The notes under the pieces are model-generated. The model did no database searches, was not told the origin of the DNA, and saw only the letters and a program-made list of their open reading frames with translations. Made by a program: the position numbers and the translations under genes. A stretch of DNA of 64,000 nucleotides, from assembly GCF_053078305.1 (NCBI RefSeq), contig NZ_CP166879.1; one strand, given 5' to 3'. Below, in pieces: positions 57,450 through 59,259 of this stretch (within the stretch, counting starts at the first letter, position 1; each line of letters starts with the position of its first letter).

Positions 57450-57917
57450 CTAGTTAATACACTGAGTGCGGATATATTCCTTCGCCCCTTCCAGCTGCTT
57501 CTGCATTGTCATCAACCGTTCTCTGAGGATGAAATAATCCCGTTCAGCGGTGTCTGCCAGTCGGGGGCCGGTTGCATTATCCACGCCGGAGGTGGTGGGG
57601 GCTTCACGCACGGAGCCTGGACAGGTGGCTTTAACCCGCAGGCGCTTACGACCAGCGGCAACATCAGCACGCAGAGTTTCATTTTCAGCTCTCGCATCGG
57701 CTAATTCCCTCGAGTATTTAGCATCGAGCGCAGCAACATCGCGCTGGCGCTGCTGCATATCAGTAATGGTTGCGTTTGCCAGCTCCAGCTCTCTGGCTTT
57801 TTTATCGCGCTGCGCTTTGTAGGTGATGGCGTTATCGCGGTAATGATTCAGCCCCAGACTAAGCGCACCACAGGCCACCAGCAGGACAATAATCACCACA
57901 CACAGAACACGGTTCAT
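57450..57917 (-). CDS. Rz: i-spanin Rz
   Basis: 155 aa [43 protein letters not shown]..., lambda Rz-like. Confidence 0.93.
57512..57697 (-). CDS. Rz1: o-spanin lipoprotein Rz1 (embedded in +1 frame of Rz)
   Basis: 61 aa [25 protein letters not shown]...[27 protein letters not shown]; lipobox and proline-rich region. Confidence 0.88.
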
Positions 57918-58849
57918 ATCACCACCATTTCACTGTTTTCTTTTTCCAGACGTTTTTTTGCAACAGCGAAATACCGGTCATCCTTTTCTATTCCGGTAAA
58001 CCGTCTCCCCGTCCGGATACATGCAACACCTGTTGAACCACTCCCCATAGTAAAATCCAGTACCCTGTCGCCAGGGTTGCTGTACGTCTGAATCAGCTCT
58101 TCCAGTAATGCAACTGGCTTCTGGGTCGGATGCCATCGCTCCCGCTCCCGCGCGTACTCCAGAATATTTGCGCGGTATTTTTTCCCCTGAGGGAGATTAA
58201 AAACCACAGTGCCGTAACCGGAATTCACTTTGCACATTTCTTCATATGTCATGAAACCCGGCATACGGTCGATACCAAAGCGTTTAATTAACTCGTTGTA
58301 CGTATCCTGTGAGCAGAGGGAAAACTGGACTGTGTTCACGCGAAAAAAATGCTCTGCCCGACAGTGCCCCAGTGTTTTGTTAACTTCCTTGTCTGTCCTG
58401 TGGCCAATGAAAGAAAGGATATTTCGGGCGTACTCCCTCAGCGGGTGGTTTTTCTCACTGTCATATTTTTTCCGGAAAACAACGATATCCTCGAATAAAG
58501 ATACAGGTGCTTTTTTTACTGAAAGCGGGTTGGGGAAATGCTCCTTCTTCCACACCATACGATATAAAAACGGCAGGTTTTTATCCGCCAGAGTAATCAT
58601 CGTGCTTGTATGCGGCTCCTGGCTGAACATGACCAGCACACCGCCCACCCTCAGCAGTCGTTCGCACTGTGTGAAAATATCTTCAGGATTTAAGGCATCG
58701 TCCCATGCTGTCGTACTCTTATCCCATGTACGGAGTGTAAGCCCTTTAATGGTTCCATACGGCGGGTCACATAAAACCAGGTCAACACTTCCCGGTAGTA
58801 ATGAAGGCATAACATCAAGACAGTCACCGGAATACAGTACACATTTCAT
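57914..58849 (-). CDS. DNA methyltransferase, beta-class (N6-adenine or N4-cytosine), no restriction partner seen
   Basis: 311 aa; motif IV DPPY near N-terminus and motif [10 protein letters not shown] near C-terminus; stop overlaps Rz start. Confidence 0.8.
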
Positions 58850-58856
58850 GTTTCTG

Positions 58857-58988
58857 TCACCCCACCAGCCCTGACAGAGTTAAGACGCGCCAGGCAGTGG
58901 AAAAGCAAATAGCAACCAGCATTAGTGAAAATGAAATGCCGACGATTACACAGAGGATCTTCGCCAGCATTATGAGTTTGTCTGACAT
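58857..58988 (-). CDS. hypothetical 43-aa single-TM protein
   Basis: MSDKLIMLAKILCVIVGISFSLMLVAICFSTAWRVLTLSGLVG with strong SD GGGAGG; stop 8 nt before the methyltransferase ATG. Confidence 0.45.
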   Translation of the reverse strand: MSDKLIMLAKILCVIVGISFSLMLVAICFSTAWRVLTLSGLVG

Positions 58989-59002
58989 GTTTAATCCTCC
59001 CT

Positions 59003-59186
59003 TCACGATTTCAACGCAATGACCAGTTTTGCCAGCCCATACAGCATCGGAGACACAGCGATACCGACCGCCACCCACTTAATAGCAAAAGCCAGTGCTC
59101 TGCTGATGTCATCAGTTACTGGCGCTTTCAGTTCAAGGCCGTTTTTCATAGTCAACCTCAACAGAATTCGTTTATACTTTTCCATG
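59003..59186 (-). CDS. hypothetical 60-aa protein with C-terminal TM helix
   Basis: MEKYKRILLRLTMKNGLELKAPVTDDISRALAFAIKWVAVGIAVSPMLYGLAKLVIALKS; SD GGGAG; track ORF allows upstream start at 59218. Confidence 0.45.
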
Positions 59187-59218
59187 TTCTCCCTTGCCTT
59201 ATCCAAGGTCAGAAACAC

Positions 59219-59259
59219 AAAACCCCGCTTGCTGCCAACAAACGGGGTTTTTACTTTTA
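59219..59259. terminator. strong hairpin between R and the small-ORF/methyltransferase cassette
   Basis: AAAACCCCG-CTTGCTGCCAACAAA-CGGGGTTTT with T-rich runs on both sides. Confidence 0.5.

Follow-up and report, generated by a model that had tools for sequence, protein, structure and literature searches.

A predicted orphan adenine methyltransferase gene positioned between the endolysin and Rz spanin genes of enterobacterial prophages

We analyzed a 64,000-nucleotide stretch of DNA (NCBI RefSeq assembly GCF_053078305.1, contig NZ_CP166879.1; here called the window), in which the lysis cassette of a lambda-like prophage has a gene for a predicted DNA methyltransferase (MTase) between the genes for the endolysin R and the spanin Rz. 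We lean toward a reading in which this orphan MTase is made only from the late/lysis transcript and marks progeny DNA before packaging, and in which its clade has long resided between the endolysin and Rz genes of enterobacterial prophages. Temperate phages are already known to carry orphan beta-class MTase genes in their late regions; in the literature that we searched, we found no description of an MTase gene that is stably placed, and coupled to Rz, between the endolysin and spanin genes of two different phage backbones. That search found no paper describing an MTase between endolysin and Rz, and a 279-genome comparison of Shiga toxin (Stx) phages never mentions a methyltransferase (PMC8136144).

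The position of the MTase gene is recurrent. A protein search with the MTase returned approximately 120 clusters at 53% identity or more, and the named ones were almost all from Salmonella enterica or Escherichia coli. The relatives in E. coli and Salmonella prophages (55 to 77% identical) form one clade. We examined the context of ten clusters (55 to 67% identity), and in nine of them the MTase gene was directly 3' of an endolysin gene and 5' of a gene for a PF03245 Rz-type spanin. The tenth (P0103/L268) was a copy without its N-terminus that adjoins an invertase remnant. A Salmonella diarizonae representative (L184) had its MTase relative in the same invertase context, and one locus (L005) had a split copy just 5' of a different holin gene. 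When clusters, E. coli alleles, and two IMG/VR loci (L099 and L100) were taken together, the MTase was in the endolysin-Rz slot in 13 of 16 contexts. In a neighbor-joining tree, which carries no support values, the slot MTases all grouped with the two copies that adjoin an invertase in a single clade, apart from all other relatives.

The phages with an MTase in this slot are of two types. Some are lambdoid, with a Q antiterminator and Nu1/GpA or other terminases, and others are P2/HP1-like myoviruses with holin_3_1, tail X, GPL, and HP1 Orf24. Identity across the slot loci ranged from 23 to 96% for the endolysins, 55 to 100% for the MTases, and 31 to 89% for Rz, and the holins came from three Pfam families. 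At 10 of 12 loci, the MTase stop codon overlapped the in-frame Rz start codon as ATGA, and the Rz ribosome site was in the last MTase codons. In the window, those codons contain the Shine-Dalgarno-like sequence GGTGGTGA. An earlier reading of the window, made from its sequence alone (the original prediction), had placed the MTase gene within the string of lysis genes and coupled it to Rz by a shared ATGA, and both points held. It had also raised whether this cassette might be a standard conserved component of related phage lysis operons with a known function. The order is indeed conserved and recurrent in related prophages, but its function there is undescribed. One locus, L003, encodes an MTase 99.9% identical to that of the window and an Rz that is 65 to 66% identical, with the shared identity stopping approximately 200 nucleotides into Rz. 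Therefore, the MTase gene and the 5' end of Rz move as a block by recombination.

Beyond this clade, there was no full-length relative above 54% identity among 50,697 deposited phage records. The best match there (54%) was in vB_EcoM-ep3, and its gene adjoins primase, not lysis genes. A scan of species-representative genomes added one Salmonella and one Arsenophonus locus as close relatives. The remaining matches (30 to 54%) came from many phyla, and those that we examined were in replication or structural modules, suggesting that the association with lysis genes is specific to the enteric clade. A 45% relative is encoded by the P2-like plasmid-prophage pArsFIN13 of Arsenophonus nasoniae (L265/L200), where the gene order is holin-lysozyme-Rz-MTase-gpR. 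This relative is also in a lysis cassette, but on the opposite side of Rz. Relatives with 49 to 54% identity also occur in Latescibacterota, Bacilli, Campylobacterota, Methanobrevibacter, and Methanosphaera (L185 to L193), which is an unusually high cross-domain conservation for a phage MTase.

The catalytic motifs and predicted fold of the protein, together with a ratio of nonsynonymous to synonymous polymorphism (pN/pS) of 0.27 across four alleles, make it very probable that it is an active N6-adenine DNA MTase. Residues 22 to 299 matched positions 1 to 221 of the 221-position Pfam model PF01555 (N6_N4_Mtase; E = 1.9e-32). The motifs are in the circularly permuted order of the beta class: DPPY at residues 28 to 31, a helical middle domain, and MGSGSTG at residues 268 to 274. 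This agrees with the beta-class DPPY enzyme of the original prediction. However, the FxGxGS that it had read near the C-terminus is FxxGxGS when the S-adenosylmethionine (SAM)-binding motif (residues 265 to 274) is aligned with DPFFGVGTTG of CcrM; DPPY likewise aligns to its CcrM counterpart. When 25 homologues with identities as low as 52% were aligned, 62 columns were invariant, including DPPY, HPTQKP, MGSGSTG, and all catalytic and SAM-binding motifs. The motif is DPPY rather than SPPY or SPPF, and the nearest folds and sequences are those of N6-adenine enzymes.

An AlphaFold model made with the 25-homologue alignment had a Rossmann-like MTase fold (predicted local distance difference test score, 82.8; predicted template modeling score, 0.80). 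All top matches to this model in a Foldseek search of the PDB were beta-class MTases with a probability of 1.00, led by CcrM, M.BceJIV, M.RsrI, and M1.HpyAVI. Solved structures cover the catalytic core alone, with a template modeling score of approximately 0.5 on query length. A helical insert at residues 136 to 211 was well predicted and matched no solved counterpart in the PDB fold search; it is presumably the part that recognizes the target.

The MTase stayed below the NCBIfam cutoffs of three equivalog families. It scored 78.9 bits against a cutoff of 830 for CcrM (NF050803), 77.5 against 292 for YhdJ (NF008572), and 74.6 against 244 for PRK13699 (NF010253). A type II restriction-modification system was also rejected. 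The neighbors of the MTase gene are small2 (a small membrane protein gene described below) and Rz, then R, terminase, and unknown open reading frames (ORFs), with no cognate endonuclease among them. PADLOC found zero defense system matches among the flanking ORFs, in line with the earlier view that there is no restriction nuclease nearby. The window has no second MTase.

The features of the cassette and its surroundings are as follows, in their order on the minus strand.

60903..61121, minus strand: class II (pinholin-type) holin, the first gene of the lysis cassette (phrog_9876, E = 2.5e-40; phrog_20).
59912..60898, minus strand: 328-amino-acid ORF of unknown function in the gap between holin and endolysin (phrog_1085, E = 4.8e-115).
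59342..59875, minus strand: endolysin R, a 177-amino-acid lysozyme predicted to be of the signal-anchor-release (SAR) type, with a weakly hydrophobic, Ala/Gly-rich N-terminus (phrog_7, E = 2.8e-62).
59219..59251, minus strand: terminator-like hairpin within the spacer between R and small1 (15-pair stem and T-rich tail).
59003..59185, minus strand: small1, a 60-amino-acid tail-anchored protein of unknown function with a single transmembrane segment (phrog_1115, E = 1.4e-42).
58857..58988, minus strand: small2, a 43-amino-acid protein with a single transmembrane segment, the usual gene directly 5' of Rz (phrog_4906, E = 2.2e-24).
57921..58856, minus strand: segment inserted relative to the empty site, made up of the MTase ORF and a 7-nucleotide leader (alignment with L002, L001, L003, and L004).
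57914..58849, minus strand: predicted 311-amino-acid orphan beta-class N6-adenine DNA MTase (PF01555, motifs, predicted fold).
57450..57917, minus strand: Rz i-spanin (phrog_13, Rz-like spanin, E = 2.3e-76).
57512..57697, minus strand: Rz1 o-spanin lipoprotein, embedded in Rz in the +1 frame (lipobox LVVSAC and a proline-rich stretch, from sequence).
57202..57426, minus strand: 74-amino-acid ORF of unknown function downstream of Rz (phrog_2571, E = 1.7e-27), followed by terminase genes.

All features of the original prediction were found on the minus strand, essentially where it had placed them. A small difference was in the gap between the small2 stop codon and the MTase start codon, which is 7 nucleotides (CAGAAAC) rather than 8. 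On the basis of its predicted components, the cassette is of the pinholin/SAR endolysin/two-component spanin type. The syntenic gene in L001 to L004 is annotated as a class II holin family protein. R shares 92% identity with its counterpart in an Stx2a phage and has an N-terminal hydropathy of 1.74; SAR endolysins have been predicted for Stx phages (PMC8136144). The counterpart of the 74-amino-acid ORF in L001 and L002 is annotated as a hypothetical protein. The 328-amino-acid ORF had neither an NCBIfam nor a PADLOC match. In related prophages, the gap between holin and endolysin holds YdfR/DUF1327 proteins or other ORFs instead of this one. Therefore, that gap is a second variable cargo slot of the cassette.

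The original prediction had the two small membrane ORFs inserted between R and Rz together with the MTase gene. We compared the frequency of each part in 5,426 complete E. coli genomes. When the R-to-Rz stretch was used in a megablast search, partial matches were found in 4,540 genomes, but only 7 had at least 80% query coverage. When only the MTase gene was used, in a more sensitive search, 7 genomes matched at 99% identity or more, 1 at 78%, and 3 at 68%. The seven closest matches and the 78% match are annotated as a DNA-methyltransferase followed by a lysis protein. The MTase is in the R-Rz slot in these 8 genomes, whereas 2,013 genomes carry the hairpin-small1-small2 segment without the MTase, with up to 8 copies per genome. 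Therefore, the small ORFs were not coinserted with the MTase gene.

The arrangement at individual loci is consistent with this. The common arrangement, an empty site represented by L002, reads small2-TGA-GGGGGAT-ATG-Rz. Relative to L002, the window has approximately 936 extra base pairs (57921 to 58856), beginning with CAGAAAC-ATG and ending where the MTase ORF ends, and the GGGG of the empty site is replaced. Nearly all of 80 IMG/VR loci retrieved with small1 had the order R-small1-small2-Rz and no MTase. Only 2 of the 80, both from one IMG genome entry, had an MTase, and their R, small1, small2, MTase, and Rz proteins were 100% identical to those of the window. Conversely, the MTase gene directly follows the endolysin gene, with no small ORF, at four loci (L181, L096, L266, and L267). 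The slot of L003 contains an antirepressor-like gene, Ant, in place of small1, followed by small2 and the MTase gene. The same Ant is found in the Stx2a phage Stx2_PV06-102, in the order R-Ant-small2-Rz. Judged by these arrangements, the hairpin, small1, small2, and the MTase gene are independent occupants of one cargo slot, and joint insertion as a module is contradicted.

The two small ORFs probably encode real small membrane proteins. As first noted, they encode 60 and 43 amino acids with one strongly hydrophobic stretch each, and both are preceded by purine-rich ribosome sites. AAGGGAGAAC precedes the small1 start codon, and the best 19-residue hydropathy of small1 is 1.90 at residues 38 to 56. 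GGGAGGATTAAAC precedes that of small2, and its best hydropathy is 2.86 at residues 11 to 29. Neither matched Pfam or NCBIfam. Public sources call them only "hypothetical" or "transmembrane protein," and their PHROG families are of unknown function. For small1, pN/pS was 0.135 with a third-position excess, a biased value because the sample was picked by small1 protein sequence. For small2, whose sample is free of this bias, pN/pS was 0.37 for the conserved codons 1 to 26 and 0.60 for the variable tail (codons 27 to 43). The small2 substitutions in that sample were conservative and hydrophobic, and its length was fixed. Among phages, small2 has 43 or 49 amino acids (L269, 1653 to 1799), and its tail has two allelic forms. 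It is present in 276 phage records directly 5' of Rz, mostly in Stx1- and Stx2-converting phages, and it is usually unannotated.

Either small ORF can be lost. The closest complete-genome relatives of the window are six Shiga toxin-producing E. coli strains, 98.7 to 98.8% identical across the region, and their small1 is frameshifted. Therefore, small1 is dispensable in MTase-bearing prophages. A 2-nucleotide insertion in small1, annotated as a frameshift, is present in L001 (6166 to 6350), L008, and L009. Also, small1 or small2 is missing, truncated, or broken in several apparently intact cassettes. At two loci (L182, 2362 to 2499; L183, approximately 1925 to 2060), an unrelated-looking tail-anchored ORF of 43 to 45 amino acids (MSDISKLIRELR...) is at the small1 position after a terminator hairpin. 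Its hosts are a P2-like Salmonella prophage and an E. coli prophage. The place of the small ORFs in a pinholin/SAR endolysin cassette suggests a lysis-related or exclusion role, although we regard this as a lead only. P2 LysA and Mu releasin are small membrane lysis regulators encoded between endolysin and spanin genes, and their likeness to small1 and small2 is by position, again only a lead.

The strong hairpin reported after R was confirmed, with its 15 pairs and T-rich tail. It folds with an energy of -21.1 kcal/mol (z = -3.5), which none of 200 shuffled sequences equaled. The spacer between R and small1 (59186 to 59341; 156 nucleotides in the window) is highly conserved, with a length of 155 to 156 nucleotides in all 87 of the 87 loci compared. 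Only a patch approximately 23 to 40 nucleotides after the R stop codon varies; some alleles have a perfect palindrome there (CGTTGGCCAACG and GCGTGGCCACGC), and a GGATAACAC core is invariant. A search of positions 57300 to 59500 found no Rfam family above threshold; the sole weak match was a rimP leader (E = 0.23). On the plus strand, a weak promoter-like site (59149 to 59178; 9 of 12 matches) faces the small1 start and, beyond it, the hairpin; read on this strand, the hairpin is again terminator-like. Together they would give a layout like that of a type I antitoxin, with the promoter match at chance level: 1 antisense site was found, and 4.5 were expected.

How might the MTase be expressed? 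When we scanned the coding strand from position 57000 to 61400 with a simple method limited to sigma-70 consensus sites, we found no sigma-70-like promoter. With no promoter of its own, the MTase gene would be silent in the lysogen. It would be transcribed solely on the Q-antiterminated late/lysis transcript, which would read through the hairpin after R; lambdoid lysis genes are expressed from a late operon (PMC8022706). As read from the sequence, a weak ribosome site of the GGGG type, 7 nucleotides after the small2 stop codon, would allow a low level of translation, and ribosomes would pass from the MTase straight to Rz through the ATGA overlap. We found no RNA structure masking the start sites of the MTase (z = 0.08), Rz (0.01), small1 (0.46), or small2 (-0.53). 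MTase made only in cells committed to lysis might then methylate replicated, concatemeric phage DNA before packaging, so that progeny would reach new hosts already modified against restriction.

Several points weigh against this proposal. There is a strong terminator-like hairpin upstream of the MTase gene, and read-through is assumed. The MTase gene has a weak ribosome site and is also rare (8 of 5,426 complete E. coli genomes), and this rarity, together with the lack of a relative above 54% in the phage records, means that any benefit may be small or host specific. Synthesis only late in infection could leave packaged DNA partly modified; lambda and P22 virion DNA is undermethylated even by the host Dam enzyme (PMC8022706). 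Linkage to Rz, and not selection on timing, could be why the position is conserved. Finally, both the MTase activity of the clade and its late expression are predictions.

A bolder reading, which we consider rather unlikely, makes one of two independent claims. Either the endolysin-MTase-spanin order has been selected to confine a promiscuous or toxic MTase, similar to the prophage enzyme M.EcoGII, to the final minutes ahead of lysis, or small2, which is conserved directly 5' of Rz in hundreds of Stx and other lambdoid phages, is an unrecognized lysis component or regulator. If the order is selected in this way, progeny DNA would be broadly masked against many restriction systems without harm to the lysogen.

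Two further alternatives are both unlikely but deserve weighing. The first is that the MTase gene entered the site 5' of Rz once and persists mainly because it is tied, physically and by translation, to an essential lysis gene, as a passenger with little or no benefit to the phage. In agreement with this, all slot copies are in one clade, the 99.9% identity of the L003 MTase beside its divergent Rz shows the MTase and the Rz 5' end traveling as a block, and the gene is rare in E. coli. There are also damaged or displaced copies, such as the split gene of L005 and P0103/L268 without its N-terminus. However, a pN/pS of 0.27 and catalytic motifs that are invariant over 45% divergence are hard to keep without selection on activity, and the gene persists beside very different endolysins and holins in two phage backbones.

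The second concerns the small ORFs only. They might be a type I toxin-antitoxin-like pair or regulators of lysis timing, with the MTase irrelevant to them, an idea to which we also give little weight. Both are short proteins with a single transmembrane segment, good ribosome sites, and PHROG families, and they are in a pinholin/SAR endolysin cassette with a two-way hairpin and a promoter-like site facing the small1 start. Even so, that site is at chance level, no Rfam family was found between 57300 and 59500, and so there is no sign of the antisense or overlapping RNA of a type I system. Also, several cassettes that look intact have lost one of the ORFs or have a broken copy of it, and constraint on small2 is only moderate.

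It is more doubtful that the MTase is an epigenetic factor of lysogenic conversion, expressed in the lysogen from an unrecognized promoter and altering host expression or protecting the chromosome or prophage. Our promoter scan was limited to sigma-70 consensus sites, and phage-borne orphan MTases can affect their hosts in other systems. However, the coding strand has no promoter-like site and there is a terminator upstream. The MTase gene also overlaps Rz, expression of which would be pointless in a lysogen, and two relatives of the MTase, M.EcoGI and M.EcoGII, are not expressed in the lysogen, with M.EcoGII harmful when expressed (PMC5778455). Least probable by far, and rejected here, is a three-gene module in which the two membrane peptides and the MTase act as one unit, such as a defense or toxin system: packing is tight (7 nucleotides between small2 and the MTase), and the MTase gene of L003, L004, L179, L182, and L183 comes after small2 or another small ORF, but the small ORFs occur without it in approximately 2,000 E. 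coli genomes and small2 in 276 phage records, the MTase directly follows the endolysin in L181, L096, L266, and L267, small1 is frameshifted in MTase-bearing relatives, and PADLOC matched none of the flanking ORFs.

If the MTase does modify progeny DNA, the range of E. coli and Salmonella strains open to these prophages, some of which have Shiga toxin genes, would depend partly on it. Such MTase genes would leave no motif in methylomes of uninduced lysogens. The conserved MTase-Rz pairing is a simple marker for finding a clade of uncharacterized phage MTases, one of which might have a useful specificity. Recognizing the small membrane ORFs as common and largely unannotated parts of Stx-type lysis cassettes corrects a likely misreading. 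Elsewhere in the window, a hok-like 46-amino-acid ORF (37155 to 37295, minus strand) and a sok RNA (Rfam RF01794, 63.5 bits, 37284 to 37442) are between prophage tail genes. A tRNA-Ser gene (anticodon tga; 33860 to 33947, plus strand) is a few hundred bases from the tail-fiber end of the prophage and is probably its integration site.

Among known systems, the P2-like Burkholderia phages offer one comparison. Their PF01555 methylases, KS5 gp20 and KL3 gp28, are encoded in late (tail/lysis) modules and have been read as protection from restriction (PMC3091744). They resemble the window MTase by family and placement, as cargo among the late genes of a temperate phage, but they are between tail genes, one with a Com-type regulator (PMC3091744). 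The window MTase is also like other cargo of the lambdoid lysis region ("morons") in using the R-Rz slot, as does the antirepressor-like gene of Stx2 phages. Unlike a classical moron, which has its own promoter and terminator, the MTase gene has no promoter, the sole strong terminator is upstream of small1, and there is a translational fusion to Rz. With CcrM, YhdJ, M.RsrI, M.BceJIV, and M1.HpyAVI, it shares the catalytic fold (Foldseek E = 1e-16 to 1e-15) and the DPPY and SAM motifs, but identity is approximately 20% and the insert at residues 136 to 211 is unmatched.

Precedents for late-only expression are M.EcoGI and M.EcoGII, beta-class MTases of E. coli Stx-type prophages that share 333 of 349 residues. 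Both are silent in the lysogen (PMC5778455). M.EcoGII methylates adenine without sequence specificity and damages the cell if expressed, and the authors suggest that it is switched on only as the prophage excises for new infection (PMC5778455). Like them, the window MTase is prophage borne, has no nuclease partner, and has an N-terminal DPPY, a central target recognition region, and a C-terminal SAM motif. In phage 1720a-02, an M.EcoGII-like gene is also in the late region, between Q and stx. Its product aligns with the whole window MTase, middle domain included, at 26% identity (E = 3e-25), which makes the window MTase a distant relative only, and close membership of the M.EcoGII family was rejected. 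The window MTase differs from that family in length (311 versus approximately 350 amino acids) and in its slot, R-Rz instead of Q-stx.

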